Shown piece after piece: positions 9,576 to 57,555 of a stretch of 58,536 bases of DNA. The stretch covers positions 1 through 58,536 of the forward strand of contig NIVC01004138.1 of assembly GCA_002269645.1 (NCBI GenBank), given 5' to 3'. The position numbers and the translations under genes were made by a program. The notes beneath the pieces are model-generated. The model saw only the letters and a program-made list of their open reading frames with translations, was not told where the DNA came from and did not search any database. Each line of letters opens with the position of its first letter. Positions within the stretch are counted from its first letter, which is position 1. The DNA comes from Macrostomum lignano. Its lineage: Eukaryota.

Positions 9576-9579
9576 TAGG

Positions 9580-9972: not shown

Positions 9973-10253
9973 GGCCGGGGCTGTTGCCCCCAGGACCCCG
10001 GGTCCTGCACGTAATGGCGTGGTGAACTATCTGTGCAGTATGAGACTGGTATGGCCTTTATCCCAGCCAGCGATGCTCACACCTGCCTCCCCTGGCGGGC
10101 TGATAGCTCAAGAGACTCTGTCTCCTGATTTTCACCTTGCAAGGCGCACTTCGAAGGGTACTCGTCCCGTGGGTGTTAAGGCAGGCCCCCTTGGGCCCTG
10201 CCGAGCTGATTCGTTGGCGCCGGGTCCTGGTGTGACCATAAACGCACCCTCTA

Positions 10254-17965: not shown

Positions 17966-19714
17966 ATCTAAAGTTATACAGCGTTTTGAAACTACGTTTA
18001 GACTACTGTAAGTAGTTAAATGCTAACGCAGCTTTGAAGTGAGGAATTATTTTTTAAGTCAACAGTTCCGACCAGAATGGTAGAAACGTTCGAACAAAGT
18101 AAATTTTTAATAGTAAAGAAAGAAGGAATGGTCCAAGGAGCTGCGTATCGACATCAACTCAACAAAAGAACTGAGTTCTGTCTTTTCTCAAGGGTCCAGC
18201 GAGCGATTTCCTTTCCAACGAGGCCGCGAACATAGAAATGGGGTGTAGGTATGACAATCAGGGTGGAGGCCTCCAAAAGATTACACGATCTTTGAGCCGT
18301 CCTGTTATACAGCAGTTAGTGGTCCTTGGAGTGGTCCTTGAAAATTAATCTGAGGGGATCGCGGGTTTGCAAAGGAGATGGTGCAGCTTATAGGCAGCCC
18401 GAGACAGATTATATTAAACAGAACCTTCTCAATTCAGTCAGAGCCAAAGTGTCTATGGACAAACCTGCATGTTCCTAACCAATTGAACTATTCATACAAA
18501 GTATAATCCTGTGCTAAAAGGACCTGTGCTGGACCTTTCATACACAAAAGAAGTCCGAACGAGACTGACCCTTTCAAATCAAACATAATGGCTGATGGGA
18601 GGGAGGGAAGACAACAGAGGAAGAAGTGTAAGACGAACCGCTTGAAGAGGAAGGCGAGGAGGCTAAAGATGGTGAAAATCGAAAAAAGCTTGACGGAATG
18701 CTTGAGAGACTAGCTGAGGATGTCCAGCAGTTGAGGTTTGTTCGCTATCGAGGCTTGATCAGCGAAACTTGAGAAATTTGCATCAATGTGTTCATAGCCA
18801 CATGGTGCCACCTGTTGAAGGTCCAGTGACCAACGAAGTCAGAGCTGATGCATGCAGACACATGTGGTCGACGTGTAGATGAAATTTGGAGGCTTGTCAA
18901 GTCTGCACTGAGGCGCAGTGCTGATTAGCTCACAAGGGTGTGCTGAATACACTAGCGCTTATGGGAAAAATCCTACCTTCTGGCAGAATCGTCGAATATC
19001 TCGACGGTCCGAATGGGTGGGCGACTTGATTCTTGCTTGAGAAGGTGCGCAACAAAAAGTCTGTCCGTGTTCTGGAATTTCGTGTGCCTGCGTTGCTCCG
19101 TTCCGGCGCAGCAAGACAAATTGTCCCCCCTCTTGGTATCTCGACGGGCGGAAAAATGGCTCCGTACTCCTACTTTTAAGACAAAATCCTCACGTCTGCA
19201 TCAGTGTCTGAATTGATGTTCCACTTGTTTGAATAAAAATGGAGTTTTCTCAAAATCGGAGTTAAACAGGTGCATTTCCTCATTGGGATCTATAGCCACT
19301 CTCTAGCTGTGGCACTCCACAGCCAACAACAACATCAACAACCAGGGTTCTATCCATCTACGAGGGCTACATGCACGAGCTAGTTAGTACAGAGTGCAGA
19401 CTGCATGGTCCGCCACCCGAAGGCGTACAAGTGCGCACTAAGATTGTGTGCGAGTGATCGCCAGGGAACGCTATATTAGGGAGAAAATTGTTTTCTATAT
19501 AAGTATGTATTCAGACACTGAGGAGGGAGCGGGGTATGCGGAACTGATTAGTACTTGTTGGTCTGAAATCCCCATCAAACGCGTGGGTTGTCTACACGTA
19601 TAGCTAGGTAGTGGTGAATCAGTTTGCTGTCTACCTGCACAAGAGATTAGTGGGATTTTATAGTGGCACTTCAATTTGGCTTCCCCAACGCCCACACTCT
19701 CTCTGACACCTACA

Positions 19715-20630
19715 ATGTGGCTCTCAGTGGCTCTCTGTGACACTGTGGCTCTCTTTGACACTGTGGCTCTCTTTGACACTGTGGCTCTCTTTGACACTGT
19801 GGCTCTCTCTGACACCCTCACTGTGGCTCTCTTTGACACTGTGGCTCTCTGTGACACTGTGGCTCTCTTTGACACTGTGGCTCTCTTTGACACTGTGGCT
19901 CTCTCTGACACCCTCACTGTGGCTGTCTTTGACACTGTGGCTCTCTTTGACACTGGCTCTCTTTGACACTGTGGCTCTCTCTGACACCCTCACTGTGGCT
20001 GTCTTTGACACTGTGGCTCTCTTTGACACTGTGGCTCTCTTTGACACTGTGGCTCTCTCTGACACCCTCACTGTGGCTGTCTTTGACACTGTGGCTCTCT
20101 TTGACACTGTGGCTCTCTTTGACACTGTGGCTCTCTTTGACACTGTGGCTCTCTTTGACACTGTGGCTCTCTTTGACACTGTGGCTCTCTTTGACACTGT
20201 GGCTCTCTCTGACACCCTCACTGTGGCTCTCTTTGACACTGTGGCTCTCTGTGACACTGTGGCTCTCTTTGACACTGTGGCTCTCTTTGACACTGTGGCT
20301 CTCTCTGACACCCTCACTGTGGCTGTCTTTGACACTGTGGCTCTCTTTGACACTGTGGCTCTCTTTGACACTGTGGCTCTCTCTGACACCCTCACTGTGG
20401 CTGTCTTTGACACTGTGGCTCTCTTTGACACTGTGGCTCTCTTTGACACTGTGGCTCTCTCTGACACCCTCACTGTGGCTGTCTTTGACACTGTGGCTCT
20501 CTTTGACACTGTGGCTCTCTTTGACACTGTGGCTCTCTTTGACACTGTGGCTCTCTCTGACACCCTCACTGTGGCTCTCTCTGACACCCTCACTGTGGCT
20601 CTCTGACAACCTCACTGTGGCTCTCCTGAC
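19715..20630. repeat. 18/24-bp minisatellite with higher-order pattern
   Basis: GACACTGTGGCTCTCTTT units interspersed with GACACCCTCACTGTGGCT variants. Confidence 0.97.
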
Positions 20631-23644: not shown

Positions 23645-24075
23645 GTTGGGCGCTGTCCATTTGGGGGGGGGGCGTTGTCCTTAGGGGCGCTGTCTTCAGG
23701 GGGGCGCTATCCTTAGGGCGCACTGTCCTTAGGAGGGGGGGTGCGCTGTCCTTAGGAGGGGAGCGCTGTCCTTTGCAGGGGGGACGCTGTCCTTTGCAGG
23801 GGGTGCGCTGTCCTTAGGGGGGAGGACGCTGTCCTTAGGAGGGGAGCGCTGTCCTTTGCAGGGGGGACGCTGTCCTTTGCAGGGGGTGCGCTGTCCTTAG
23901 GGGGAGGACGCTGTCCTTAGGAGGGGAGCGCTGTCCTTTGCAGGGGGGACGCTGTCCTTTGCAGGGGGTGCGCTGTCCTTAGGAGGGGAGCGCTGTCCTT
24001 TGAAGGGGGGACGCTGTCCTTTGGAGGGAGGACGCTGTCCTTAGGAGGGGAGCACTGTCCTTTAGGTTGGGGGCG
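23645..24075. repeat. ~20-bp G-rich minisatellite
   Basis: Units like GGGGGACGCTGTCCTTTGCA and GGAGGGGAGCGCTGTCCTT. Confidence 0.9.
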
Positions 24076-24594
24076 CTGCCTAGCCGCCTAGATGATGTGT
24101 AGGACAAGTGACAATCGACATTAGACATTGGACATTATACACTATATGCTACTTGACAAAGTAGCTTAAAATAACGTACTTTAAATGGCAACTAGTGCCG
24201 AATAATTTCTGCTGTAATCATTCAAATTTCCCTAAAATGCTACCCGTGTATTTGACCGATGTTCTTGCATGCACAAGTTGTAATGAGAAAAAAACAATAT
24301 TGAGTTCACAGGATGAGCATCGAGTTGCAAAAAAAGTACGCACAGACCGTGAAATTTGTATTTTTAACCGTACGAGCTCGTAATTTGACTGTACGAGCTC
24401 AAATGATTGCAAACGCAGTTTCAGCCTGGAAACCCCGACCTTTTTTAGTATTCTGCTATTGTTCTAGGGTAGCACATGCTTGGAAAGATTAGAAGTATTT
24501 TTATGCTTGCGATTTTAAAATCGCAACGTAGAACCGGTCTCGGGTGAAAAAACTCGCACTATTTCATGGTCTAAAATAAAACAAATAATAAAAT

Positions 24595-25826: not shown

Positions 25827-26049
25827 AACAATGAACCATCAAACTACGAGCTAGAAGAAAGATTCTACACACGAGAAGTTCCCTTAGGGCTGTTTTTGGC
25901 TGGGGCCGATTTCATAAAAAAGCTAAAAGTGATAAGTGACAAGTCGACAAATGACAAGTGACAAGTGTCAAGTGTCAACGATTTTGGTTTCAAAAACATG
26001 GGTCCATACTCGTGTTGAAAATAACTCAGCTTTATGCCTATGGTTGAGA

Positions 26050-27684
26050 GGGGTGCTTTCACAAGGTCGAAATTTCACAAGGTCGAAATTTCACAACATC
26101 GAAAACTCTAGCAGAAGACTTCATAAGGTCGAAATTTCACAACATCGAAAACTCGAAAAGCAGCCACTTTCATAAGGTAGAAATTTCAGAAGGTCGAAAT
26201 TTCACAACATCGAAAACTTTAGCAAGAGACTTCATAAGGTCGAAATTTCACAACATTGAAAACTTTAGCAAGAGACTTCATAAGGTCGAAATTTCACAAC
26301 ATCGAAAACTTTAGCAAAAGACTTCATAAGGTCGAAATTTCACAACATCGAAAACTTTAGCAAAAGACTTCATAAGGTCGAAATTTCACAACATCGAAAA
26401 CTCTAGCAGAAGACTTCATAAGGTCGAAATTTCACAACATCGAAAACTCTAGCAGAAGACTTCATAAGGTCGAAATTTCACAACATCGAAAACTCGAAAA
26501 GCAGCCACTTTCATAAGGTAGAAATTTCAGAAGGTCGAAATTTCACAACATCGAAAACTTTAGCAAAAGACTTCATAAGGTCGAAATTTCACAACATCGA
26601 AAACTTTAGCAAAAGACTACATAAGGTCGAAATTTCACAACATCGAAAACTCTAGCAGAAGACTTCATAAGGTTGAAATTTCGGGGGGGGGGGGTTTCAC
26701 AAACTCGAAATTTCACAACATCGAAAGCACCTTCTTTCACAAGGTCGAAATTTCACAAGGTCGAAATTTCATAACATCGAAAACTCAAATAGCAGCCACT
26801 TTCACAAGGTCGAAACTTCACAAGGTCGAAATTTCACAACATCGAAAGCTTTAGCAAAGGACTTCATAAGGTCGAAATTTCACAACATCGAAAACTCTAG
26901 CAGAAGACTTCATAAGGTCGAAATTTCACAACATCGAAAACTTTAGCAGAAGACTTAATAGTTGTAAGCCTTCGAGGCTTTTCTATATTCTATTGTTGTT
27001 TAGTAGGCCTATATATGTTGTAGGTGTTTTTCTGTTTGTCACTTAGTCTAATTTATCCTAACCAGTCATTGCCAAAGGGCTTTTTTCTCTTTTCAAAGTT
27101 TTTCTCTTTTCCCCTAAATTTATCCTACTTCTGATACCAAATTTTAGGTGCTTTTTACTGCTCAAATTCCAAAATGCTTCCCAACTATATAGCTAAACTT
27201 ACAGCTTATGTAAACTAACCCATCGTCCCAGTAGTCATAAGACACTTAGCAGAGCACTCAGCACTCCTTGACGTTGAACTACTTAAAGAAGAGGTGATTA
27301 AAAACTTCTCTGAACCAAAGCTATTAATTATTAAAACAAAAAATAATAATATAAACATTGACACACAATAAAGACTTTAGTTTTCTACATTGTAAAATTT
27401 TGATATTTTCATACTTGAAGCTGCTAAATTCTCAGTTTTTACATTGTAAGATTTCGATCTTATGAAAGTGGCTGCTATTTGAGTTTTCGACCTTGTGAAA
27501 TTTCGACCTTATGAAGTCTCTTGCTAAAGTTTTCGATGTTGTGAAATTTCGATCTTGTGAAATTTCGACCTTATGAAGTCTCTTGCTAAAGTTTTCGTTC
27601 GATGTTGTGAAATTTCTACCTTATGAAAGTGGCTGCTTTTCGAGTTTTCGATGTTGTGAAATTTCGACCTTGTGAAACCCCCCC
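26050..27684. mobile_element. Foldback-type non-autonomous DNA transposon
   Basis: GGGGTGCTTTCAC...GTGAAACCCCCCC termini; arms built of AAGGTCGAAATTTCACA repeats in opposite orientations; 8-bp TSD GGTTGAGA at 26042-26049 and 27685-27692. Confidence 0.88.
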
Positions 27685-31293: not shown

Positions 31294-32130
31294 CTGTGGG
31301 GTGATGGAGTAAGCAGTGTCTTGCTTTTGTACTCAGCTATGTCTGTAGATACGGAGTCCGGGAATTATCCGTCTGTCTTCCCTCAATCTCTGCCCAACCC
31401 GCTGTCGAATAGAAATCTTTTGTAGCTCTGCTACCCTGTTTTGCACAGTTCTCACCTGCACTCGGCCGGGCCACACTGAAAAGCTTATAATAACTCGGGC
31501 AGAAGGATTCAAAGAGCAAAAGCTGAATTCACTTATGCAGATCCGAGTGGACTGCCTGTCCGTTGTAGTGTTTCCTTTTACTTTTCTCCTCTCTACTGCT
31601 CCATAGGGAACTGGACATTTTCTATCCCCTCGCACTGAGCTTCTCCGGCTAGCGCTCCACCCTGGCAACCCAGATCGTATTGGCTGCTTTAGGCTTGCCA
31701 GCTTGATTCGCCAATGCCGACATGGACACACGATTGACAAGAAAACCAGTTCTCGACAGCATACCGTAATAATGAGGATACAGCATGGGACAATGAAGCA
31801 CTAACTTAGTCCACTTTCCTTTTTTGGATCTTGATTTCGTAAAGATTTCGATAGGCAATACAGTAAAACAAATGCAAACGAAAGAATAAGACGGAAATAC
31901 GATCGTCTCTGTCTAAGGCTTCGATCACTAGGCTGTGCATCTCATTACCGATATTTGTCCAATATCTATGTTTTTGGCTTGCGGGCTGTCCCCCTCTGTT
32001 CGTCTGGGAGCCGTTTCATAGCCAGTGTCGCTATCATCATCTTCACAGCTTATATTGTTGCTGATTTGTAGGTTAGATAGCTATGGTTAGCCTTTAGTAG
32101 AAACGAGAGGACTAAGTGCTAATGCTCCAA

Positions 32131-32398
32131 AGTAGTAGGAAAGTGGTACCCTCTACCGCCATCGCACGGGATTGGCCGGGGCACCCGGCCAATGAGGGGA
32201 GAGGGCGCCCCGAAGACGCCCACCCCGACGCCAAACCCACCCCGACCCCCAAACCCACCCCGACCCCAAACCCACCACCGCCACGCACCCAATCCCGACC
32301 CCAAACCCACGCACCCACCCCCGACCCCAAACCAGGCCCCCTCCTGTCCTACACCCCTCCTGTCCTGCACCCCGTGCATCCCATACCAAGACCCCCTC
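32131..32398 (+). repeat. Polinton left TIR, followed by ~39-bp tandem repeats to ~32650
   Basis: Reverse complement of ~42840-43105. Confidence 0.95.
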
Positions 32399-33136
32399 CT
32401 GTCCTGCACCCCGTGCATCCCATACCAAGACCCCCTCCTGTCCTGCACCCCATGCATCCCATACCAAGACCCCCTCCTGTCCTTCACCCCTCCTGTCCTG
32501 CACCCCGTGCATCCCATACCAAGACCCCCTCCTGTCCTACACCCCTCCTGTCCTGCACCCCGTGCATCCCATACCAAGACCCCCTCCTGTCCTGCACCCC
32601 ATGCATCCCATACCAAGGCCCCCTCCTACGCCTTGCCCCATCCCATGTAGCAAGGTCCTTCTATCCTGTACCCTAACCAAAACCAATTCCCCCCTCCTAA
32701 TTCCTAAACCCAAGTCTTATTACCTGTCTCACTTACCGCCTTTAAAGCTAGCCAAGGCAAAACCCTCATTCCATGCTTTGGTTGTACTGTATCTTGCTGT
32801 GGCGGGTACAGCGTGAGGTCGTTAGACCTAGAACGCTACTTCTTGGCGGCCAGAGGGCCGCAAGAAGGTCCCGCCACCTCCTGTTACGTTGATGGCTGAG
32901 ACTTTGTTAAGGCCCGAGTTCCTGCGAAAGGGCTGCTGTGTGGGGGTTGGATTTGGGGTTCGGATTAGTTATTGCTATGGAACAGGAGCTGGTTTCTAAA
33001 TGGCTGAGTGGTCCCCGGAAGGGCTCCTGATTTGCCGAGAGTTCCTGCGAGAGGGCTGTTGTGTGGGGTTGGATTCGGGGTTCGGATTGGTTATTGCTAT
33101 GGAGCGGGAGCTGGTGTTACTTACCAACTCTCGTCG

Positions 33137-33143
33137 TATATAA
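33137..33143 (+). promoter_or_regulatory. Candidate TATA box of the PC4-like gene
   Basis: TATATAA about 40 nt upstream of the ATG at 33183. Confidence 0.45.
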
Positions 33144-33182
33144 TCTCGCACACAGCCGGAAGGAAAGCTCACAGTGAACAAA

Positions 33183-33824
33183 ATGAACTTCAAGACATTA
33201 TCGAACAGATTTCGAATCGGCGTCAGGTCGCACTCGAAGTGCATCAGCATCAGAAAGTGGTACAAATTTGATGAAGAGTATCGACCAGGTCTGCCTGGCA
33301 TGGAGCTCACCGTCCACCAGTTTTGCCACTTGGGCAGCCTGAAGGAACGACTGGAAGAGTTTGCAAGAAAGTGTATCGATGCGCAATGCCTTCTGGGTGG
33401 CAACAGGCAAGTGGTTGTGCAAAATGGCGTAATCACACTCTGGCGCCTTCCAACTGTACTCGGACCGCCGGTGCACCTAAGGCACGCCTTACCGCTTCCT
33501 ACAAAACTTTGGCGCGAAGTCTGGGCTCAAAAGCATTGGGTCCTAGACAAAATTGACAAGCGAGAACCTCCGGTCAAGCCACCGATCGGCGATCCATGGT
33601 GGATGGGATACCACCCTACGGAGCCTGAAGAGTGTGCAGCATGGGCAGCAAGGCTTACATTGATGCAAGTACACCTGACAGGCAGCCGGCAGAGTGGGAC
33701 GACCACTGGGAGGCTTTCCAGGCAGTTCAGGCTGAATTTAGAAAGAGATTTGCATCCGAAACTCTGGAAGAGCCATCAACAGCTGAGAAGAACCAACAGC
33801 CTTCATGCCACCAGCCACCAATGA
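33183..33824 (+). CDS. PC4/Sub1-like ssDNA-binding or coactivator domain protein
   Basis: CISIRKWYKFDEEYRPGLPGMELTVHQFCHL aligns with PC4 [38 protein letters not shown] at 34109 downstream. Confidence 0.7.
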   Translation: MNFKTLSNRFRIGVRSHSKCISIRKWYKFDEEYRPGLPGMELTVHQFCHLGSLKERLEEFARKCIDAQCLLGGNRQVVVQNGVITLWRLPTVLGPPVHLRHALPLPTKLWREVWAQKHWVLDKIDKREPPVKPPIGDPWWMGYHPTEPEECAAWAARLTLMQVHLTGSRQSGTTTGRLSRQFRLNLERDLHPKLWKSHQQLRRTNSLHATSHQ

Positions 33825-34310
33825 AGCGACGCGCAATGCATGAAGCGACAACTGGTCATTTCGTCAAGTAACTTTTTTTTAAATATAGTTTTGAACCATA
33901 GTACTGATCATGCACTGTTGTATATACTGCTTTGTCAATACTGGCTATAATATTGCCCCATGATGCTTTAATTTCTTGCGATAATACCTGTTTTGTAAAT
34001 ACAGGCGACGGGCCTTAATACTGCCCTTCCATTCTTCATAAACTTTTTTTTTGTGCTAATAGGAGCTTTTAACATGTAATTTTATGCTTTGCAATCCATG
34101 GACCTGCCAATAAAATAAACAAAAAAAAACGTTTCATTTTTGTTAGCATTGTTGCACAAACATAGTTGCATTCGCGTTTATTTTTTCTTATCTTTTGTAC
34201 ACAAAAAATACAGAAGTAAAGTTATAGGAAAAATATTATTATTATTATTATTATTATTATTACTCAGTGCATAGGCAGATCTCACTACTACTGTTATGCC
34301 GTAGAGGAGC

Positions 34311-34908
34311 TCAGTCAGAGTCCAGCAAAGTAGGTTCGGATGCTTGGTCTGCATGCAAAATGCGGGAGAGGGCATCAGCTGCAGTCTGAGCCTCAACCAC
34401 GCTGCGAGCACCAGCTATTATACAGCGATATGAATGAAACAAAATCAACTTTACAGAGCAGTAAACTCGAGCACAAGTCCGTTAAACATTTCCGGCTCGT
34501 AGGTGGCCCGATGCGGCCATTTAGACTTGACTTCCCCCAACCGGAGTGGATGCCGACCCGCGGGAAAGGCGTCACAGAGGTAATAGTCTTGATGCGAATC
34601 TGGGGCAGACTGGTCAATCGCAAGAAGTCCGCACACAGCTTCACAATCTTCTCTGTCTCTGCGAGAGCTTCCTCCATGCTTTTGGCTCCACAGACAGACA
34701 CTTGTCCGGTCGGATACACCAGCGCGGTTACTCGATGCTGCCCGCTCTTCATCACCACAGCCAGTGTTCGAGGATGAACCAGGCGATGGCGGATTGTGTG
34801 ATACTGAGGCAGATGAAGAGTCAGGAAATTCGCTAGTTGTGGCAGACCCACCCGGGTCGCCAGGTCGGCTCCTGTCACGATGTTTGTTACGCGAATTGTT
34901 GCGGCCAT
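34311..34908 (-). CDS. TATA-binding-protein-like gene, two -1 frameshifts as assembled
   Basis: Repeat 1: VTNIV...LAVVMK...TALVYPTGQVSVCGAKSMEEA. Next frame: ATYEPEMFNGLVLEF. Third frame: SVKLILFHSYRCIIAGARSVVEAQTAADAL. About 199 aa once joined. Confidence 0.8.
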
Positions 34909-34953
34909 CTTTAGACAATCGAGAGAAATGCCAGTGCCTGCTGCAGATCGCTA

Positions 34954-34961
34954 CTTTTATA
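34954..34961 (-). promoter_or_regulatory. Consensus TATA box upstream of the TBP-like gene
   Basis: TATAAAAG about 45 nt upstream of the ATG at 34908. Confidence 0.55.
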
Positions 34962-35417
34962 GACCCGTAGCCGCGAGGCCGCAGCCAATCAGCGTACAGC
35001 GCCACCTTGGCCAGGGCGCAGGGTAGCACGTACTTCGAGGCACTCGGAAAGGCCAGGTGTGCGAGGTCGTAGACAGGCTGTAGCAGCAGACGCGACAGGA
35101 ACTGGCACTTGACATCCCCCTTGCTAATATCGGGCCTTGCAAGTGGAGATATCGCTCCAGAGACAAGAGTAGGGTCGGAACCCACTCCTGTCCCAGTCTA
35201 GACCGTGCCGCTTATTGGTGAGCCAGTAGCAGGTTCGTCGCTGTCCTCGATCAAAGAGCTCAAAGCTGTGCGGCGGTCGGTAGCAATAGTAATGAGCCGT
35301 CGTTTGACCGCATGCAAACTCAACCCATGCAATTTCCTTAATCACAAAGTCCTCTGTTTTGTAGAGGTGCGGAAATCCTTCAAAATCAATGACAATCATC
35401 TTGGCCACTTGATCCAC
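34957..35417 (-). CDS. Stand-alone DEDD/DnaQ-like exonuclease, frameshift near 35130
   Basis: VIDFEGF...FVIKEIAW...RPP...WLTNKRHGLDW, continuing in the next frame as SKGDVKCQFL...VYDL...CALAKVALYADWL. This pattern is familiar from Polinton-associated ORFs. The 3' end is uncertain. Confidence 0.65.
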
Positions 35418-35992
35418 TTGCCGTATCCTTTCTGAGACTGAGTCTTCTTATAGCCTTGCAGTCGAGGTTTTTTAGGACTGGACTTTTCTTCCCGAGGCTT
35501 TTCCAGCAATTTTGTAGTGTTCAGACCAACTGCAGACAGAGGCACGTGGTTTTCTTGAAGACACGTAACAAACTCATTAATCCCATTCGGTGGCTGAAGG
35601 TACTTAGAGTACGTATCTTTAACTATGAAATGCAGCAGGTCCACGATATTTGAGTTGTACAACGGTTTACCATTGACAGAAACTTCATACGTATCATCTA
35701 TGCTAATCGACTTGCACTTTACGGTTATGAAGCTAATCAATGCCTGCAGACGATGATGCCATTTCTGATTCACCGTCAGATATAAAACCTCCTTCCACTG
35801 CGGTTCTTTGTGAATTACTGGAGGCTGTTCTTGGGTCGCACTTGCCTGCAGCTGCTGCACGCAACGCTCGTCCCTAATCTTGCGCAACTGTTTTTCCGCC
35901 TCTAGCTCGGGTTCACAGACTGTCTCCATGCCCCTCTGATTCACAAGTGCCTCATACTGCAACCGGGGTACCAGTATCATTTCCTTGTACAT
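35396..35992 (-). CDS. Conserved Polinton hypothetical protein
   Basis: Intact 198 aa; MILVP...VNGKPLYNSNIVDLL...PPNGINEF...L.ENHVP pattern. Confidence 0.7.
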   Translation of the reverse strand: MYKEMILVPRLQYEALVNQRGMETVCEPELEAEKQLRKIRDERCVQQLQASATQEQPPVIHKEPQWKEVLYLTVNQKWHHRLQALISFITVKCKSISIDDTYEVSVNGKPLYNSNIVDLLHFIVKDTYSKYLQPPNGINEFVTCLQENHVPLSAVGLNTTKLLEKPREEKSSPKKPRLQGYKKTQSQKGYGKWIKWPR

Positions 35993-36282
35993 GTCTTTTT
36001 ATACAGGTGAGAATCAGAGGAAGACAACGAAGGATATGCGGGTGTGAGAGATTGCGCCGAGCCTCTTTCACACTTTTGCTTTGTGCAACAAGCCGGAGAG
36101 TATTTCGATATCGCCTGAGTCTCCGCTTCAAGCTATCTTCACAACAACTTTTCCTGCTAGTAAGTTATAATACACTCGACCAAAAAGCAAATGGTGCTTT
36201 TATTTGCATAGGTAAGTATGCAGCGACGCAAGGATATAGTGCCCTCACAAAAGACAGTTATTAGTGCAATGTGTTTATCCAT
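35952..36282 (-). CDS. Small basic Polinton protein, frameshifted, missed by the ORF track
   Basis: MDKHI...RRCILTYANKSTICFLVEC / NLLAGKV / LKRRLRRYRNTLRLVA, read across three frames. Confidence 0.5.
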
Positions 36283-36312
36283 GTTTAACTCAGTGCAGAT
36301 ACTGAGCCATTC

Positions 36313-36972
36313 TTATAGATAAACTCGCTGCGGGGCCTCATCGGGGAGAAAATTGGCTCTCAGGCGCAGTTCATGGGGCGAAGCGGGGTGAAAATCAAGC
36401 AGCAGATAGCGCTGATCTCCATCTCGCACCAATCGATCCATCAGTTCTACTAGCAGAGTGCGCCGTTTGGGAAAGCATTGCTGACTTAAAGCTTGGACCG
36501 CAGAGGCGTCTCTGGGGTTGTTGAACAACACAATGTAGGTGCAATTTATGCTAATTGTGCGCCACTCTCTGCCTTTGAAAAATAGATTTTGCGTGATGAG
36601 AATGACAAAGCAGGGCTTGTGGTGGGCCTCACGGGTGAACAGATGTCGTAGCTCTCGACTTGCAGCTGCTTCATCCAGTAAATCGTCAATCACAATCAGG
36701 TCATGGGGCTGCAGATCCAAATTCGATAATCCTTCACATACTTGCACTCCTAGCCGCCGCAGAGTCGCGTGGAGTTCCGGCTGCGGGCATCCGTGATACC
36801 AAATCATCCGCTTGGGAGGTTGGTCGAACAGAAGCAGTCGTTGGGACAGCAACCGCAAACAGAATGTTGATTTTCCCGCTCGAGAAGGGCCCGAAACCAT
36901 CATGCAGCCTCCCATCCGCAGTCTGGAATCAAACACCTTGCAACTGATTTTTGAGTCTGAGTATGATTGCAT
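36313..36972 (-). CDS. A32/FtsK-like DNA packaging ATPase
   Basis: Walker A GPSRAGKS, Walker B LIVIDD, ITQNLF, RTISINCTYIVLFNNPRD. Confidence 0.93.
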   Translation of the reverse strand: MQSYSDSKISCKVFDSRLRMGGCMMVSGPSRAGKSTFCLRLLSQRLLLFDQPPKRMIWYHGCPQPELHATLRRLGVQVCEGLSNLDLQPHDLIVIDDLLDEAAASRELRHLFTREAHHKPCFVILITQNLFFKGREWRTISINCTYIVLFNNPRDASAVQALSQQCFPKRRTLLVELMDRLVRDGDQRYLLLDFHPASPHELRLRANFLPDEAPQRVYL

Positions 36973-37401
36973 CGTTTTGAGCCACAGCTGCCGGGTGCAA
37001 AACCTTGATGAACAAGGCATTATATGACATTCTCTTATGCAGTCGATGGATCAAGTAAAAAATGCAATACCAGCCGCAAGAGTTGACGAACTGGGCTGAA
37101 CAGGGACCGTATTCCATTGTAGCACCATCCGCGTCGGTTTAGTTTTCTTTAACCAGCTCTTCATATTTTTACTCAAGCCTCCCAAAGAGTTGAAAATTTC
37201 ACAATGCACTTTACTGGTTACTACTCCAGCAATCCAGTGACCGCACTCATCATTCCATGGCTCATACAAAATGAAGCAGCAGGGTCGGCAGGTTGAATCG
37301 AAAAATGGTGTCACTGTTCCAACTGTAAAAATTCCGCAATAGGCATCCCGCACAGCTGTGGGGCAGCGAGAAATGAACGCTTCCAACTCTTCGGAATTCA
37401 T
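36929..37401 (-). CDS. Adenain-like cysteine maturation protease, one -1 frameshift near 37075
   Basis: GHW, IFNSLG, QPSSSTL then CGWYC in the next frame, giving the H, (D/N), Q, C order. Confidence 0.85.
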
Positions 37402-38669
37402 GCTCTGCGATAATCCAGCAGCACATCCCTCTCTTTAGTGATTTCCATGCATGAATCATACACGCACAAGCAGATGAGTGTGACTGGCTGTGCGAGAGCG
37501 TTGGAAAAGCGAATATCCAGTCGTAGTTGACCCTGCCTATGACCAAACCAGCTGCCTACTTCATCGCCACTTGGACTAAGGTCAAACGCAAGCAGATAGG
37601 CACTATTTCGAAATTCATCAAAGCTTATGCAATAGTTTCCACCGAGACTGCGGGCAAACTGCAAAAATTCGGATGAGGGCTGCTGCTGTGGTTCTATGGG
37701 CTGCCCAGTAATTGGCTCTCCATTGACAAACAGGCTTAAACTATTCAACCCAAATGCTTGGAACCAAAACGGGTTGTGGTGCAGAGATCCATTGAAAGCA
37801 GTCTGGCTGACCATTCCAAGGAGCACAAATTTTGGCAGCTGACCATGCGTGATTGAATCGAGACTCTTGTTTCTTGTCCCAACAGAAAATGTGAATGTCT
37901 GAAGCTCTCTTCTATCAAAGTGGTAGAGAGCATTACGCTGTGAGAGCCCCTGTTCATGTGCGAGAGCCACTGTTGGGTTTACTCGGAGACGCCTCAAAAG
38001 CAGAATAGCATTGTCGACTTCAACACGGTATTGAACTCCATTATTGGGTACCATCAACGAAAAAGCGCTGCAATGCCGGGTCAATTTGACCTGCAGGCTG
38101 ATTTGGTTTAGCAGATACTGCCGGATTGAGAAAATGTCTGAAAACAACGGGCCGGCATATTGCACAACAGCAGAAGCCTCATGCAATCTCGCACGATTTG
38201 TGAATCCATGATTTTGCTCCCCAATGGTGTCACTCTCTCCAGCGGTGTCTGGATAATAACCTGCGGCCGCCAGTTCTTGAAGCTGGTTGGCATTGCTGCT
38301 GGTCAGCACTTGAAGCATTGCTCGATATGGGTAGAGCTGGTCCCCACCACTCACAACCCGCTGGTTGAGTTTTACAGTGACATCACGAAACAGGCTGGCA
38401 AGCGGGAGATTCGATAGTCCGACATGGGCATCATCTTCATTAGTCAGCTCTGCATTGTTTATCACACGAGTTATCCGGCAAGTGACTTGCAGCACTGTGG
38501 CGTGCAGATCGGTGTAGTCCTCAGAGGAGGCGTGGCAGTCGAATTCAATCGGTGCATCAGGAGTCGTGAGACTGCCGATGGGATGAAAGTCCGTGAAGTG
38601 AGACCTATCCACTCCAATTTCATGCGTCATTGGCTCAAACAGATTGAGCCGTGGATTTGTCCGATACAT
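37398..38669 (-). CDS. Major capsid protein (double jelly-roll, hexon-like)
   Basis: Intact 423 aa; FHPI...PIEF, LASLFRDVTVKLN, YPYRAML, GQLPKFVLLGMV, NPFWFQAF, LRLDIRF. Lies in the virion gene block. Confidence 0.88.
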   Translation of the reverse strand: MYRTNPRLNLFEPMTHEIGVDRSHFTDFHPIGSLTTPDAPIEFDCHASSEDYTDLHATVLQVTCRITRVINNAELTNEDDAHVGLSNLPLASLFRDVTVKLNQRVVSGGDQLYPYRAMLQVLTSSNANQLQELAAAGYYPDTAGESDTIGEQNHGFTNRARLHEASAVVQYAGPLFSDIFSIRQYLLNQISLQVKLTRHCSAFSLMVPNNGVQYRVEVDNAILLLRRLRVNPTVALAHEQGLSQRNALYHFDRRELQTFTFSVGTRNKSLDSITHGQLPKFVLLGMVSQTAFNGSLHHNPFWFQAFGLNSLSLFVNGEPITGQPIEPQQQPSSEFLQFARSLGGNYCISFDEFRNSAYLLAFDLSPSGDEVGSWFGHRQGQLRLDIRFSNALAQPVTLICLCVYDSCMEITKERDVLLDYRRA

Positions 38670-38917
38670 TATGAGAGTGAATCGAGCACTCGGTTGACTG
38701 TTTTTAACGGTATCTTGCGCTTTTTTGTGGGCACTGGCTTGCTCTTCTTTGGTTTGATTTTTGGCGTTTTCTTATGTTTTTTCTGCGATGGAGGTGGTAT
38801 GCGGGAAAGGAGAACTGCATTTTCATGAGTCTCAGGGGGCAGTCGAGATAGCAGCGATGTGGGATATCCGTGCCCATGAGGAAGTTTGAAGCAACTGCCT
38901 CGATAAAACTCGGTCAC
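38669..38917 (-). CDS. Small Lys-rich putative core protein (GTG start)
   Basis: YRG...HGHG N-terminus and KKHKKTPKIKPKKSK tail; overlaps the penton stop and the capsid start. Confidence 0.5.
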   Translation of the reverse strand: MTEFYRGSCFKLPHGHGYPTSLLSRLPPETHENAVLLSRIPPPSQKKHKKTPKIKPKKSKPVPTKKRKIPLKTVNRVLDSLS

Positions 38918-39678
38918 TCACGCAGCTCAAAAGTCAAGACTGTGGGTCCAAAGAGTAATCGGATAGATTCGATACAGTTGATCGGTCGTAGCCGTATTTG
39001 CATGTGTGTTAAGCGGTGGTTTGCTGCTATTGGGAAGAACAGCTTATTCTTATAGATGAGTTCCGACCGGTGATCCTGCAAAAGACCACCAATATTCAAA
39101 GTCTGCAGTGCTGGAGTAAACTGATTTCCAATACAGCGCGGGCTAATCTGATCGCACTCAACAAGCAGCAAATCCGTATTCCAGGCCGGGTTCATGCCAG
39201 GTCGTTCAAAGCATCCTGCCTGCTCGCTATAGGTTGTCTGCGCAGCACCAAAGATTTTCCCCATCTGGCTGTTTTCTGGAAACATAAATCTCTCACAGAT
39301 CCCAGCCATTTGATAGTATACATAATGGCTAACTGAATCAAGGGTAAATTTAATTAGATGCACATTTATAGGTGTTTCGCCAATTCCAGACTCATCAAAA
39401 TCTTTTACAATCAGTAAAGCATTTACTGCATCAATCAGCTCATTCAAGTCATTGTAGCGCCCAGCTGGAATTTCAGCACATTGCATTGAACCCTCAAGCT
39501 GATAATATAGCGACAATGGATGAGGGATCGTGTAGATGCAGTTGATAAAACTGATTCCAAGCAGACCCAACTCATAGTCCAAAGCAGAATCCAGCAGCAC
39601 AGGATGCAGCAGCTCAGCAGTAAAGTTGGCCGGGTCATCATCGGGGCCGGACATTACCTGAAATCTTTGCCTTTTCAT
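38914..39678 (-). CDS. Minor capsid (penton) protein
   Basis: Intact 254 aa; NFTAEL..PVLL...YELGL.GISF, IPAGRY.DLNELIDAVN, LLVECDQI. Confidence 0.8.
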   Translation of the reverse strand: MKRQRFQVMSGPDDDPANFTAELLHPVLLDSALDYELGLLGISFINCIYTIPHPLSLYYQLEGSMQCAEIPAGRYNDLNELIDAVNALLIVKDFDESGIGETPINVHLIKFTLDSVSHYVYYQMAGICERFMFPENSQMGKIFGAAQTTYSEQAGCFERPGMNPAWNTDLLLVECDQISPRCIGNQFTPALQTLNIGGLLQDHRSELIYKNKLFFPIAANHRLTHMQIRLRPINCIESIRLLFGPTVLTFELRE

Positions 39679-40893
39679 ATTTTTCTTAAGTCTTTTTCGT
39701 CAATCCAACTGGGTTTTTCTGAATCGCGCCACTGAACCAAATACCGAATCTTTCCACTCTTCAGCTTCTTAATGTTGAGAACCTTGTCGATGATCCACAG
39801 CTTCTTGTTTCCTGTCACTTGCTGCATTTCCGGCTCGTAAAACTTGCCTTCCAACTCTTCACCTCGGGCATCGATCAGAGTGTACATGTATGGATAATGC
39901 TTGGGGTGGAGGGACTTGACTTCAAATACTTCCTCACTCCATCCCCTTGTGTATCCCTTGGTGAATGGGTTGGCCAGATTGCGAAGAGAGATTCGCACCA
40001 TCATTCCTGCCTTGAACTTTGGTCTGGAGACCTTTTCACGAGTCTCAGGAAGCTTCCCATCGTAAAGCCGGTGCCAAATTTCCATCTCGTTTGACTTGTC
40101 GACATCAACTGGTCGGCTTTGAATACTCCGATGAATACTCTGGTTGTATGCCTTTGCTAAGGGTTGAAGCACATCGGTCCAGGTTAATGTTGACTTGTGA
40201 CGGAAGTACCGCCACATTCGGGATTTCAGTGTGCGGTTCCATCTCTCAATGACTGCGCATTTCTGGTCACTACTTGATGTGAATGCATGAATTTTGTGGT
40301 TTACGCAGAGGGCTCGGAACTGGGTGTTACAAAACTCTTTTCCACGGTCGGTCCGAACTGCTCGTGGGCATCGAGGGTGAGCTCGATTTAGGATCGCTTC
40401 GAATCCGGCTGCAACCTCCTCGGCTGTCTTGCGGCGCACCGGCTGAGCCCAGGCAAACTTGCTGAGCACATCAATGCAGCATAAAATATATCGTACGCCG
40501 CCATTGTACTTGGCAAACGGTAGCATTTCAACCAGGTCCAGTTCCCACTGGTCATCCATGCCCCGCGCCACAATCGGTGCTCGACGAAAGTTTTTGCGTT
40601 TATCTCTATGCAGTGTGTAGACATCTTGGTCTTGGAGCCACGTTTTTACCTTTAATTGTAAAAACTGGAAATTGCTAGCTAGTGGATAAAACTAAAAACC
40701 TAAGCTGGAATTTTCTAAAAAATCATTGGTTTAGAAGTATATCGTATATACATACCTGCCCTACACTAAACTTGGGTCCGTGCTGTTTGTGCAACTCTCG
40801 TTTTAATGCCTGATAGCCGCCATAGCTGCCCGGTCTACTGCAGTCAAAATAAATACCTGGCAGAAGGTTTGAAATTGCCTTTTTCTTTTTCAT
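39675..40893 (-). CDS. Retroviral-like DDE integrase with C-terminal chromo-like domain; two exons (40756-40893, 39675-40649), 370 aa
   Basis: D (ELDLVEM), D (RTDRGKEF), E (IERWNRTLK); YLVQWRD chromo motif. Exon 1 YFDCSRPGSYGG joins VKTWLQDQDVYTLH in phase 0. Confidence 0.93.
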
Positions 40894-41461
40894 TTTACCA
40901 AATTTCTAGTACCTATCATTTTCTTATGCCAAACACCTGCTTGAAAAAAAAAATAACTGCCCACCCCCACCAGTTTCTGCGGATTTAGCGTTTCTAGCCT
41001 CTGTTGTGCGCGAAAAAGCATGCATGTTTGCACAAAATACATACATTTCAATGGGAATTTTTACCCGAGTGTGTGCACAAAAAACCTCAACACTTTGCAT
41101 ACTTTTTAACACTGTGCACGAAAACTTGCATACTTGTGCACAAAATACATGTATTTCAATAGGGATTTGTAACGAAAACCTGTGCATGAAAATTGACGCA
41201 TTTTGTCGAAAAATTCACGCCGTATTGCATACTTTTAATCACTGGACGAAAACTTGCATACTTGTGGATAAAATACATACATTTCAATGGGGATTTTACC
41301 CCAGAGCTGTGCACAAAAAAATGACTAATTATAGCAAAAATATTTTTGTGAAAGAGCATTTTTCTCTATTTCTGCGTATTAGATATCATAGAGTAAAGCT
41401 TGTATTTATTATTATTCAAAATATAGTATGTTCGTATTAAATTTACATGCATATAGTTGTT

Positions 41462-42267
41462 TTAAATCAGATATTTACAAAGAAAAAAAAATTGTGGGAA
41501 AAAGAGCTTGCTAGTGTCCAGATCGCACTGGCCGATATACACTAGCCTGTCGAGCACAACATTCGTCTTGAGAATGTGCACCAGAACTAAATCCCGGTTG
41601 AAAATCTTCTGGTCGCGGAATGCTGACTTGGCCACAGGCTTTGAATTGACCAGTCGGTAGCTCACTTGCTTGCGAACATTCTCTAGGGTCTACAGGGAGT
41701 TGTTTAGCGGCCCGTTGTCTTTCTTGAACTCATTCTTGGCCTTTTGCACGACGCTCCATGCGGTAGATAATAAACAGCGGTCGACACGTCAACACACCGA
41801 GTGGTCCTGATTTCCCAGCAACTGGCATTGCGTAGGTACTTCTCTATCCGGTTGAGGATAGTCTGCATGTCGTCAGAGAAGTATTGCTCCTCCTCACTCC
41901 GAATAAGAGAGTGGACCTTGGCAGCAAACCAGGCGGTGTTCTCGGCGGCGCAGCGGCCATTAATGATGCGCTGCATCAGGACCCCGAGGCGCAGCTGAAC
42001 CTTGATGGCGGTTCCTGGCTGAAGTTGATGCTGGGTGATCAAGTCAATGAAAGCTTGACGAGTGCTGTCCAAAAAATTCCTCGGGTCGCCGCATGCACTG
42101 GCCCGGTAAAGTTGGGACCTGCCATTAAACGCCTCCTTGATCAGTTGAAAATGAATCGCTGGGGAGTCATCTGACTCAAACAGTGCTGGTATCGCAGGAC
42201 ATACCGCATAGTGCTCCTCAATGCCCCCGATTACTGATGACTCGCAAAAGTCGCAAGTTATTTGCAT
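41462..42267 (-). pseudogene. Internally deleted protein-primed DNA polymerase B relic
   Basis: N-terminal block (IEKYLRNASCWEI...Y.LPHGAS) fused to a degenerate motif-B region (AKNEFKKD..LNNSL*TLENVRK...IFNRDLVLVH.LKT.V.LDRLVYIG..DLDTSK). Exonuclease motifs, motif A and YxDTD not found. Confidence 0.75.
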
Positions 42268-42326
42268 TTTCGTTGTATTTTTAATTTAATCTAAAATAAA
42301 TAAAAAATCTATGGGGCCGAGGTGCT

Positions 42327-42336
42327 TTATTTATAA
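42327..42336 (-). promoter_or_regulatory. Candidate TATA box of the polB unit
   Basis: TATAAATAAA about 60 nt upstream of the ATG at 42267. Confidence 0.4.
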
Positions 42337-42839
42337 AGGGTACTGGAGCCCTTCTCCCGCAGGGTCCAAACCAAATCGTTCATCAGGGACCTCTCGACCA
42401 ATAGAATCCATTCTCCACATTTTACTCGGAAATCACTTCAAATGCTTGCTCGACCAATAGAATCCCTTCCCCTCTCTACTCGGAAATTCCAAGCAATCGG
42501 GCCCTCTACCGGATCACATTGAAACTCTGTGCTGCGTGTCACCACACGCGGTAGGAGGACACTCGCCAATGGACACTCATTCACATCTCGATACCCACCC
42601 TTGGACACTCAACCAGACACTCGGCTGCCCGACCCCTCATCTGGCCTGCTCGACCGGCCTGCCCGACCCCACTCCTGGGCTTGCCCGACCCATTTCTCCT
42701 GCCTCCGGTATGGGATGGGGTGCTGGACAGGAAGGGGCCTTGGTATGGGATGGGGTACAGGACAGGCAGGGCCTTGGTTTGGGATGAGGTGCAGGATAGG
42801 AGGAGGCCTTGGTATGGGATGTACGGGGTGTAGGACACG

Positions 42840-43105
42840 AGGGGGTCTTGGTATGGGATGCACGGGGTGCAGGACAGGAGGGGTGTAGGACAGGAGGGGG
42901 CCTGGTTTGGGGTCGGGGTGGGTGCGTGGGTTTGGGGTCGGGATTGGGTGCGTGGCGGTGGTGGGTTTGGGGTCGGGGTGGGTTTGGGGGTCGGGGTGGG
43001 TTTGGCGTCGGGGTGGGCGTCTTCGGGGCGCCCTCTCCCCTCATTGGCCGGGTGCCCCGGCCAATCCCGTGCGATGGCGGTAGAGGGTACCACTTTCCTA
43101 CTACT
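42840..43105 (-). repeat. Polinton right TIR
   Basis: Reverse complement of 32131-32398. Confidence 0.95.
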
Positions 43106-43336
43106 CTCCAAAGATTAAGTTTTTGCTAACCAGTCAAAATTTTGAGACAAGATAAGGGGCAACAGTTGTCTTGAGTAAAGCCATCCGCTCTTTCTAAATT
43201 TAGTCAACTGCTCCTAAGCTACAAATCTAAATGACCGTAAAAAGTAAATATTCTATGGGTTTTTCGGTCGGTATTTCACTTAAATCCCGAGAGCCGGCTC
43301 TGATATTTTATCTATATCAGTAATATAGTGTAATCT

Positions 43337-51974: not shown

Positions 51975-53020
51975 GGGGTGCTTTCACAAGGTCGAAACTT
52001 CACAAGGTCGAAATTTCACAACATCGAAACCTTTAGCAAAGGACTTTATAAGGTCGAAATTTCACAAGGTCGAAATTTCACAACGTAGAAAACTCAAATG
52101 GCAGCCACTTTCACAAGGTCGAAATTTCACAAGATCGAAATTTCACAACACCGAAAACTCTAGCAAGAGACTTCATAAAGTCGAAACTTCACAAGGTCGA
52201 AATTTCACAACATCGAAACCTTTAGCAAAGGACTTTATAAGGTCGAAATTTCACAAGGTCGAAATTTCACAACGTAGAAAACTCAAATGGCAGCCACTTT
52301 CACAAGGTCGAAATTTCACAAGATCGAAATTTCACAACACCGAAAACTCTAGCAAGAGATTTCATAAAGTCGAAATTTCACAAGGTCGAAATTTCATAAC
52401 ATCGAAAACTCAAATAGCATCCACTTTCACAAGGTCAAAACTTCATAAGCTCGAAATATCACAACGTCGAAAATTTAATATAACAATAGCTATACAATAG
52501 TTTTCTACGTTGTGAAATTTCGACCTTGTGAAATTTCGACCTTATGAAGTCCCTTGCTAAAGTTTTCGATGTTGTGAAATTTCGACCTTGTGAAGTTTCG
52601 ACCTTGTGAAAGTGGCTGCTATTTGAGTTTTCGATGTTCTGAAATTTCGACCTTGTGAAGTTTCGACCTTGTGAAAGTGGCTGCTATTTGAGTTTTCGAT
52701 GTTCTGAAATTTCGACCTTGTGAAATTTCGACCTTATGAAGTCCCTTGCTAAAGTTTTCGATGTTGTGAAATTTCGACCTTGTGAAGTTTCGACCTTGTG
52801 AAAGTGGCTGCTATTTGAGTTTTCGATGTTCTGAAATTTCGACCTTGTGAAGTTTCGACCTTGTGAAAGTGGCTGCTATTTGAGTTTTCGATGTTCTGAA
52901 ATTTCGACCTTGTGAAGTTTCGACTTTATGAAGTCTCTTGCTAAAGTTTTCGATGTTGTGAAATTTCGACCTTGTGAAGTTTCGACCTTGTGAAATTTCG
53001 AGTTTGTGAAACCCCCCCCC
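51975..53020. mobile_element. Foldback element of the same family as 26050-27684, almost fully palindromic
   Basis: GGGGTGCTTTCAC...GTGAAACCCCCCCCC; ~500-bp inverted arms with a ~25-bp spacer; TSD GAGGAGAG at 51967-51974 and 53021-53028. Inserted in a GA-rich repeat. Confidence 0.88.
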
Positions 53021-55872: not shown

Positions 55873-56499
55873 GGTACGGTCTTGTCTCTTGGCGAGTGAG
55901 GAGAGAGTTCGGATATTTTTCTTCGCTTTGTTTAGGATAACGCAGCATCTGTCTCATATTTATACTGTTTTTGTGGCTGTTTTTTTTAAAGATAAGTTCT
56001 CAGTGTCGTAACTAGCTACGGCATGGAACTGATGAAATGTCACGTTTGCGCAGAACGTGCCGTCGCTAAAGTTTGTCAAAAAGCTTGTGGCTAGTGATGT
56101 GACTAGTGGAACTGGTTCTTTTGCTTCTGAAAAAATCAGAATACCGAGTGTTGAGTTTCGTATGAGAAAAAGGCAACCAGTGGCACGATCCGACTATCTT
56201 GAGGGCGGTTTTGCCGTAAAATTGCGGTTGCTGCAACAAACTCGTTGGGCCCGAAAGAGATCTATCAGCACGTGACTTCAGTACCGGTGTTGGAGTGCAT
56301 TGGGCACGAATTAGTATTCTTTCTACTTTATCGCTGCACAACAAACTGATATTACTCTATTGTGTTCCAGTGGAGGCAGTACTTTCAGTTCTCTGCAAAT
56401 CTTCTTTTTTACTCTAATCTTATGCAAAATCTACCTTAGATCTTTCATTCAATTTGTTGTCTTGAGTCAGGCAATTGACCTTTTTTTAACTTTTGACAC

Positions 56500-57555
56500 T
56501 TGGGTCATGACATCTCAGCTACTAACCCTTGAGTCATGGCATATCAGCTACTATCCCTTGAGTCATGGCATATCAGCTACTATCCCTTGAGTCATGACAT
56601 CTCAGCTACTAACCCTTGAGCCATGGCATCTCAGCTACTAACCATTGAGCCATGCCATCTCAGCTACTAATCCTTGAGTCATGGCATCTCAGCTACTAAC
56701 CCTTGAGTCATGACATCTCAGCTACTAACCCTTGAGTCATAGTATCTCAGCTACTAATCCTTGAGTCATGGCATCTCAGCTACTAACCCTTGAGCCATGA
56801 CATCTCAGCTACTAACCCTTGAGTCATGACATCTCAGCTACTAACCCTTGAGTCATGGTATCTCAGCTACTAATCCTTGAGTCATGGCATCTCAGCTACT
56901 AACCCTTGAGTCATGGCATATCAGCTACTATCCCTTGAGTCATGACATCTCAGCTACTAACCTTGAGTCATGGTATCTCAGCTACTAACCCTTGAGTCAT
57001 GGTATCTCAGCTACTAACCCTTGAGCCATGGCATCTCAGCTACTAACCCTTGAGTCATGGCATCTCAGCTACTAACCCTTGAGCCATGACATCTCAGCTA
57101 CTAACCCTTGAGCCATGACATCTCAGCTACTAACCCTTGAGTCATGGCATCTCAGCTACTAACCTTGAGTCATGGCATCTCAGCTACTAACCCTTGAGTC
57201 ATGACATCTCAGCTACTAACCCTTGAGTCATGGCATCTCAGCTACTAACCTTGAGTCATGGCATCTCAGCTACTAACCCTTGAGTCATGGCATCTATGCT
57301 ACTAATCCTTGAGTCATGGCATCTCAGCTACTAACCCTTGAGTCATGGCATCTCAGCTACTAACCCTTGAGTCATGACATCTCAGTTACTAGCCCTTGAG
57401 CCATGACATCTCAGCTACTAACCCTTGAGTCATGGCATCTCAGCTACTAACCCTTGAGTCATGGCATCTATGCTACTAATCTTGAGTCATGGCATCTCAG
57501 CTACTAACCCTTGAGTCATGCATCTATGCTACTAATCCTTGAGTCATGGCATCTC
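56500..57555. repeat. 29-bp minisatellite, about 36 copies
   Basis: Unit GAGTCATGGCATCTCAGCTACTAACCCTT. Confidence 0.97.

Follow-up and report, generated by a model that had tools for sequence, protein, structure and literature searches.

A contig of Macrostomum lignano (assembly GCA_002269645.1, NIVC01004138.1; 58,536 nucleotides, here called the window) harbors a Polinton of 11 kb at positions 32131 to 43105, with inverted repeats at both ends and the 6-bp target site duplication (TSD) CTCCAA. An initial annotation had placed the element at 36313 to 42267, a span that lies inside the Polinton but is narrower than the element itself. The copy belongs to a multi-copy, non-autonomous Polinton form in which most of the protein-primed DNA polymerase gene (pPolB) is deleted and which occupies about 17 independent insertion sites. 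The form is likely copied in trans by a full-length polymerase that a same-ended sister form encodes, and its best reading is that of a non-autonomous form mobilised in trans that would have outlived its first helper.

A genome search with positions 41500 to 42300 as the query gave 36 rows (this and the other genome searches provide lower bounds). Young copies span the deletion junction, at position 41753, at 21 places on 19 other contigs, and six relic contigs span it as well; four further relic contigs were split at the junction by about 1.7 kb. After merging of three same-site pairs, the deleted form comprised 17 independent young insertions, 14 of them with perfect 6-bp TSDs; copies with one junction and different TSDs, which the initial annotation had proposed to look for, are thus present. 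Comparison of 36 flanks revealed matches between contigs only for C2126/C5126 and for one side of C1131/C1769, while C2079 and C3493, with one end each and the same hexamer, were merged as one insertion. The closest independent pairs of deleted copies differ by 0.17 to 0.35% over 6 to 7 kb and by 0.17 to 0.6% in the right arm; same-site duplicates differ by 0.11 to 0.18%. Since the junction occurs at distinct flanks and independent copies are nearly identical, the lesion predates the insertions, as had been suspected for the window copy, and the form was recently mobile, in a burst from a deleted source.

The worry that the junction might be unique to this locus or an assembly artefact was dispelled by its many flanks and by contigs from public sequencing runs of two studies (X17 and X18), which bridge it with over 31 letters to either side. 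We therefore regard it as barely conceivable that the pattern stems from assembly mixing repeats or from ectopic gene conversion of full copies to the short arm in place. The copies are indeed mosaics and contain many 1-nt assembly errors (17 unshared indels in 7.7 kb of same-site contigs), but neither the bridging contigs nor the near-identity of entire deleted copies whose flanks are unrelated, which points to a common deleted source, fits such an origin.

Searches with the capsid gene and the tip revealed copies without the remnant, which constitute the polymerase-positive sister form. They share 95 to 99% identity with the window over positions 32131 to 41297 and then continue into a different, full-length pPolB and a right terminal inverted repeat (TIR) that matches the entire left TIR, 32131 to 33175. 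The sister pPolB was found on 11 contigs, corresponding to eight insertions after merging of three pairs, seven of which have a perfect TSD. It is 99 to 100% identical among the youngest copies and carries terminal protein (TP), vOTU-like cysteine and polymerase motifs. One contig has a single open pPolB frame of 1236 codons and lacks the genes for the major capsid protein (MCP) and the penton, two more have the whole pPolB gene with one frameshift each, and the remaining contigs are deleted or decayed. A UniRef protein of Macrostomum lignano is 99% identical to part of the sister pPolB. The nearest match from outside, a metagenomic protein, is 63% identical to the sister pPolB and 40 to 55% identical to the remnant, so that the separation of the two polymerases is much older than the divergence of the shared arm. 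The genome yielded no donor family for the new pPolB. The genome thus holds both the same lesion at several independent insertions and a same-ended partner with the missing enzyme, as expected for a non-autonomous derivative, and the autonomous-type partner with the same termini that the initial annotation had called for was identified. Of its proposal that the element moved without its own polymerase and borrows one, the mobility and the partner stand, and the borrowing is the part that we infer.

Two sister copies showed further peculiarities. L065 (C110) is a full-form copy with an in-frame pPolB deletion of its own, from residue 153 to residue 692. In L067:1379-5086, the sister pPolB has GGDTDS as its motif C; usually, an aromatic residue precedes DTDS. 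The genome as a whole is rich in young Polinton-like elements.

The features of the window copy are as follows.
32125 to 32130: left TSD, CTCCAA.
32131 to 33175, plus strand: left TIR of the present-day type, starting with AGTAGTAG; its full length matches the right TIR of polymerase-positive copies.
33183 to 33824, plus strand: PC4-like open reading frame (ORF); Pfam PF02229, E 5.6e-5, under the cut-off.
34393 to 34908, minus strand: TBP-like ORF; PF00352, E 5.6e-9, over the cut-off.
34520 to 35447 (3' end approximate), minus strand: ORF without Pfam match; 309 codons from stop to stop in other copies.
35396 to 35992, minus strand: unassigned open ORF of 198 amino acids.
36313 to 37020, minus strand: packaging-type ATPase, open; Walker A motif GPSRAGKS, AAA-family Pfam matches under the cut-off.
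36929 to 37401 (3' end approximate), minus strand: Ulp1/adenain-like protease; PF02902, E 0.008.
37398 to 38669, minus strand: MCP, open; double jelly-roll model.
38669 to 38917, minus strand: short lysine-rich frame, unassigned.
38914 to 39678, minus strand: probable penton, open, 254 amino acids, adjoining the MCP; the nearest Atlas clusters are nameless and about half viral.
39675 to 40649, minus strand: main exon of the rve integrase, open, with a C-terminal chromo-like stretch; PF00665, E 1.9e-13.
40650 to 40755, minus strand: predicted GT-AG intron of 106 nt in the integrase gene, with an upstream exon at about 40756 to 40860.
41297 to 41298: branch point between the deleted and polymerase-positive forms; the match ends at 41297 in seven of ten long-type contigs.
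41483 to 41753, minus strand: dead pPolB scrap, about residues 950 to 1044, with an eroded motif B and one stop; second deletion near 41490.
41704 to 42267, minus strand: ORF of 187 amino acids with the TP domain of the old pPolB (residues 1 to 171) and an out-of-frame tail; junction at 41753.
42290 to 42712, minus strand: interior of the old-type TIR, on the right side only.
42713 to 43105, minus strand: right TIR tip of the present-day type, grafted on the old arm.
43106 to 43111: right TSD, CTCCAA.

These features identify the element as a Polinton/Maverick: TIRs of several hundred nucleotides with a short terminal repeat, a 6-bp TSD, an rve integrase and a double jelly-roll MCP, together with a packaging ATPase and an Ulp1-like protease that were recognized by motifs and weak, sub-cut-off matches. 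An intact protein-primed pPolB, the mark of an autonomous Polinton, is absent from the window and occurs only in the sister form. The MCP model is a double jelly-roll (pLDDT score 83.5) that matches the mavirus MCP in Foldseek with E 2e-15; a sequence search of PDB with the MCP yielded only antibody-domain matches, judged to be chance. A Pfam search with the penton ORF gave no match. The description of TIRs and TSD as nearly pristine was accurate, with CTCCAA on both sides and the first 185 nt of the two TIRs identical; over 389 and 415 nt, they align at 90%, with gaps in a tandem repeat. The left TIR (32131 to 33175) did not match the relic-type TIR.

The ATPase, MCP, penton and main integrase frames are open, as the initial annotation had stated. 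It was silent on the maturation protease, which is frameshifted near 37080 and forms an ORF of 157 amino acids in the two other copies checked; at the break site, 24 of the 26 covered contigs are unlike the window. Breaks were also found in the TBP-like ORF (two 1-nt breaks private to the window, near 34458 and 34570) and in ORF 34520 to 35447 (two, near 35126 and 35146). All these window-private 1-nt breaks resemble assembly errors. At its 3' end, the PC4-like ORF has a frame unlike that of all 26 other covered contigs. Owing to the predicted intron, the ATG-initiated ORF at 40559 covers only part of the integrase gene. A relic integrase of another family (L006) runs ungapped through the intron position, and the splice joint was absent from the contigs of three runs guessed to be RNA, which is evidence neither for nor against splicing. 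The TBP and PC4 genes (33183 to 35447) are host-like, and the TBP-like frame overlaps the next ORF on the same strand by about 390 nt.

The pPolB remnant extends on the minus strand from 42267 to about 41490, i.e., about 780 nt. Aligned to the 1236-residue pPolB of the sister copy, it covers residues 4 to 185 (true homology to about 170) and 950 to 1044 in two pieces, which lie in different frames and are 45% and 58% identical to the sister protein. Residues beyond about 1044, including motif C, are gone, and in the motif-B piece, which contains one stop, the lysine and the FGK end are lost. The reported picture of a polB cut to about 0.8 kb, with an internal deletion, a stop and an eroded motif B, was therefore correct; besides the single large deletion that had been noted, with its junction at 41753, a second, C-terminal deletion near 41490 had been overlooked. 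Also overlooked was that the remnant derives from an older, different pPolB. We rejected a simple deletion of the partner's pPolB as its origin, since 45 to 58% protein identity indicates a different gene.

The retained N-terminal part was modeled as a four-stranded sheet with two helices and a serine loop ahead of the last strand (pLDDT 56, three sequences). Seven of the top nine rows matching the model are Y-family little-finger domains (best Z 8.7, root-mean-square deviation 3.1 over 108), and it also resembles adintovirus and bidnavirus-like polymerases. In this low-confidence model, the part fits a PRD1-like terminal protein (D1). With its sheet, helices, serine loop and little-finger matches, the identification is consistent with the domain described in the accessible text of 10.1101/2024.03.18.585575, where the Y-family little-finger fold is proposed as the source of these TPs. 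The TP ORF found no usable match in the Atlas, and a search of representative proteins yielded six proteins, insufficient for a deep alignment.

One might suppose that the deletion was selected for a stand-alone, adenovirus-like TP gene, used with a borrowed catalytic polymerase. The breakpoint, about 25 residues short of the vOTU cysteine, follows the final strand of the TP fold by 3 to 4 codons, 12 of the 20 young places (window included; one of the 12 without ATG) keep the ORF open for about 188 codons, and the 514-nt TP part has one shared indel against six in the 274-nt scrap; the resemblance to the proposed TP source would also agree with it. However, 7 of 18 contigs have a stop at TP codon 144, upstream of the serine predicted for priming; six of the youngest insertions share it, and its spread argues that an own TP is dispensable. 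Furthermore, the window and four other contigs have an altered GSGW loop, the pairwise ratio of nonsynonymous to synonymous differences (pN/pS) is 0.59, close to the 0.63 of the scrap, and the low confidence of the model counts against it as well. No significant signal of selection on the TP ORF was detected, with 26 nonsynonymous (N) to 14 synonymous (S) shared variants against 25:6 private ones (P = 0.19). Overall, we consider a selected TP gene very unlikely.

Since the two forms are intermixed on trees of three left-arm segments, they appear to share one recombining gene pool. The trees comprised 19, 19 and 17 rows, with 4, 4 and 6 of 22 insertions omitted for low coverage and C1016 and C1863 excluded. 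The form label changed 5, 5 and 4 times, at least as often as in shuffles, and the full form as a single clade was rejected in all three segments (approximately unbiased test, P = 7e-74, 0.002 and 0.0008). No left-arm site with enough coverage separates the deleted from the full form, 22 to 35% of informative site pairs fail the four-gamete test, and the window's nearest neighbours differ between segments. A deleted form that is one clade with its own capsid genes was consequently rejected. Two same-site pairs are 17 and 16 indels apart, nearly all of 1 nt, and private 1-nt indels were therefore treated as unreliable.

N:S counts were taken from variants relative to the window copy, with same-site pairs merged. 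In the virion and integrase genes, variants shared by both forms showed 27 N:60 S and variants private to one deleted copy 92:33 (Fisher P below 1e-6); those that only deleted copies have in common (16:8) did not differ from the private ones (P = 0.47). The capsid genes are under purifying selection in the family, with a signal that is not assignable to the deleted form, because it sits in variants shared with the polymerase-positive form. The initial annotation had asked for selection among deleted copies: pairwise pN/pS values of 0.31 (MCP), 0.22 (penton) and 0.25 (integrase) would answer to it, but the deleted-only variants are indistinguishable from neutral.

These data bear on a mutual complementation, in which the deleted form would give capsid, penton and ATPase and borrow the polymerase. 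In its favor, 11 of the 17 deleted insertions (window counted) keep all five virion and integrase genes at 90% length or more, the pairwise pN/pS ratios among deleted copies are low, and the sole sister copy with a single open pPolB frame is the one without MCP and penton. The shared origin of the purifying signal speaks against it, as do the neutral-looking, though few, deleted-only variants, the complete set of five genes at that length in five of seven full-form insertions examined, and the spread of a penton-less deleted sub-lineage. We therefore consider mutual complementation improbable, and the idea of a deleted lineage that supplies virion genes, put forward in the initial annotation, was not upheld by the intermixed trees, the 16:8 count or the full copies with genes of their own. 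A capsid lineage under its own selection, as would characterize a satellite virus, was not found.

The penton-less sub-lineage is represented by C460 and C1131, which have unrelated flanks and the same further deletion, 38918 to 40313, with the same filler. The deletion removes the penton and the last catalytic motif of the integrase, occurs at two or more sites, and its junction was also seen as a loose end in run X18. From this sub-lineage and the codon-144 stop, it follows that copies without polymerase, penton, whole integrase or whole TP reached new sites. At the level of sequence, the sub-lineage is a direct sign of proteins acting in trans in the family.

Alternatively, no helper polymerase would be needed if the integrase moved copies by cut-and-paste and these multiplied through host replication and gap repair. 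The integrase frame is open, with purifying selection in the pool (9 N:23 S in variants shared by both forms), and old and new tips share 18 of their first 19 nt, enough for an integrase. Such a process, however, leaves unexplained the repeated grafting of 200 to 500 nt of new TIR, the dense recombination among dispersed copies and the fold-back-like inverted copies (C862, C592, C1016), and copies without part of the integrase core spread, so that some supply in trans is needed regardless. We thus consider this route unlikely, and prefer replication in trans by the sister polymerase.

Inverted duplications or internal inversions were seen in C862 (L058, L020, L060), C592 (L030, L031), C1016 (L052) and C1277 (L038); C862 combines left-type ends on its two sides with a perfect TSD. 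Insertion flanks lie in tandem repeats or microsatellites in C460, C592, C1277, C255, C2485, C254 and C1978.

Three relic loci were examined. The first, on four contigs, combines tips of the old type and a related left arm with a decayed pPolB that is of the remnant's type but longer; the second (two contigs) has the 41753 junction and a longer C-terminal part, and its tips were not found; the third (four contigs) has both deletions and an old-type tip. The relics differ from the window by 9 to 13% substitutions in the TP part and 13 to 21% in the scrap. In all 18 young right arms examined, 200 to 500 nt of present-type tip are joined to the old-type interior, with at least two tip breakpoints, one common to most young right arms and another in C746. 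The deletion thus appears to be older than the present termini. Across position 41297, the relic with the longer pPolB and the deleted form are continuous, which suggests that the full form was the recipient of the new arm. For the old pPolB type, the middle part turned up on only six contigs (two loci, this relic and one more decayed locus), with stops or frameshifts in the copies examined, and no intact copy of the old type was found in the genome searches.

The simplest history suggested by these few relics is a deletion, followed by a new polymerase and new termini, and then capture of the termini by the dead arm. An older family would first have lost most of pPolB at 41753 and the C-terminal part afterwards. 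In another branch, a foreign pPolB and a new TIR would have replaced the right arm at 41297. The dead arm would then have recombined into the new backbone, gaining new tips at least twice, and would have gone on spreading while the old polymerase type decayed in the genome. Mechanistically, the TP-vOTU-pPolB polyprotein of the sister would prime and copy excised linear copies, segments would be swapped during replication, and reinsertion would use integrase in cis or in trans; capsid genes would ride along from the common pool, with no payment to the helper. To our knowledge, Polinton replication has never been observed. We give even weight to the broader proposition that the dead arm switched helpers, captured new replication origins two or more times and became the majority in a recombining proviral population with a long-lived cheater, the dispersed Polinton copies of this animal then being one co-replicating virus population.

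Several points weigh against this account. The action of the sister polymerase on the deleted form is itself inferred, and only 1 of 11 sister contigs has an open full-length pPolB, the frameshifts in two others being possible assembly errors. The helper could be another pPolB family with a long open frame; many exist in the genome, with open frames of 850 to 1480 codons (at least 119 rows; scoring covered 91 of 974 candidates). Polishing of repeats can produce false mosaics; the agreement of same-site duplicates to 0.11 to 0.18% speaks against this, but two other pairs differ by 1.5 to 2%. For the direction of the polymerase swap, the evidence comes from one relic locus, with 6.5% and 20.5% substitutions in two left-arm stretches and 10.3% in the remnant, and the relic with old tips and the deletion is likewise one locus, on four contigs.

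Non-autonomous DNA transposons and defective-interfering viral genomes keep cis-acting ends, lose the replication enzyme and outnumber their helper, and non-autonomous Polintons are reportedly present in Repbase and in a description from 2006. Unlike such elements, the deleted Polinton retains 9 kb of genes in continual exchange with the helper. Classification as a defective-interfering genome was rejected, as the remnant, 45 to 58% identical to the partner's pPolB, was not deleted from the helper's own genome.

As far as the accessible text of 10.1101/2024.03.18.585575 describes Polintons/Mavericks (Eupolintoviridae; adintovirus-like) with a TP-vOTU-EXO-PALM pPolB, the window shares with them TIRs, TSD, rve integrase, ATPase, protease and MCP. 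In contrast to them, the deleted form retains no more of pPolB than the TP domain and a dead scrap, and the window adds TBP-like and PC4-like genes and a predicted integrase intron. In nematode Polintons, pPolB swaps were inferred from a sharp drop of identity at pPolB only (10.1101/2023.08.22.554363, in the part available), and here, too, two polymerase types sit on otherwise close elements; unlike in that account, the displaced polymerase is a mobile dead arm that outnumbers its replacement 17 to 8, and relics order the steps. For vertebrate Mavericks, the available part of PMC8097293 reports many copies with broken pPolB and purifying selection on morphogenesis genes, and regards as unexplained how defective copies were amplified in axolotl and tuatara. 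The breaks in those fossils are described as stops and frameshifts, whereas the window family has one shared deletion older than many insertions.

Non-autonomous elements and pPolB swaps are known kinds. In the literature searched, which excluded subscription journals, Repbase and supplements, we found no description of a polymerase-deleted, capsid-retaining Polinton subfamily, nor, with subscription journals and Repbase outside the search, of a displaced dead polymerase arm that persists as the majority form of a recombining family. The accessible parts of PMC6431247, PMC4028283, 10.1101/2022.07.12.499685, 10.1101/2024.01.15.575659 and PMC12166617 describe no such case. Polymerase-less, TP-null and penton- or integrase-damaged copies that insert with the helper's tips provide sequence-level evidence for proteins in trans, with the termini deciding what is copied, and may be one answer to the defective-Maverick amplification left unexplained in the available part of PMC8097293. 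They also call for caution, as purifying selection on capsid genes does not have to reflect their use by the defective copy that carries them; recombination with the helper can supply the signal. If helper-dependent copying is true, the family would be a natural test of how Polintons replicate.

Elsewhere in the window, a retroelement resembling long interspersed nuclear elements lies at 10254 to 15669, with two open ORFs of 571 and 1155 amino acids and endonuclease, reverse transcriptase and RNase H. Related fold-back elements, composed of inverted arrays of 16/46-nt units, were found at 26028 to 27684, 51981 to 53018 and 4207 to 4582. Tandem arrays, with approximate ends, are located at 2173 to 2900 (unit 8 nt), 9200 to 9990 (19 to 21 nt), 16311 to 17027 (24 nt), 19631 to 20480 (18 nt), 23660 to 24124 (21 nt) and 56354 to 57508 (29 nt).

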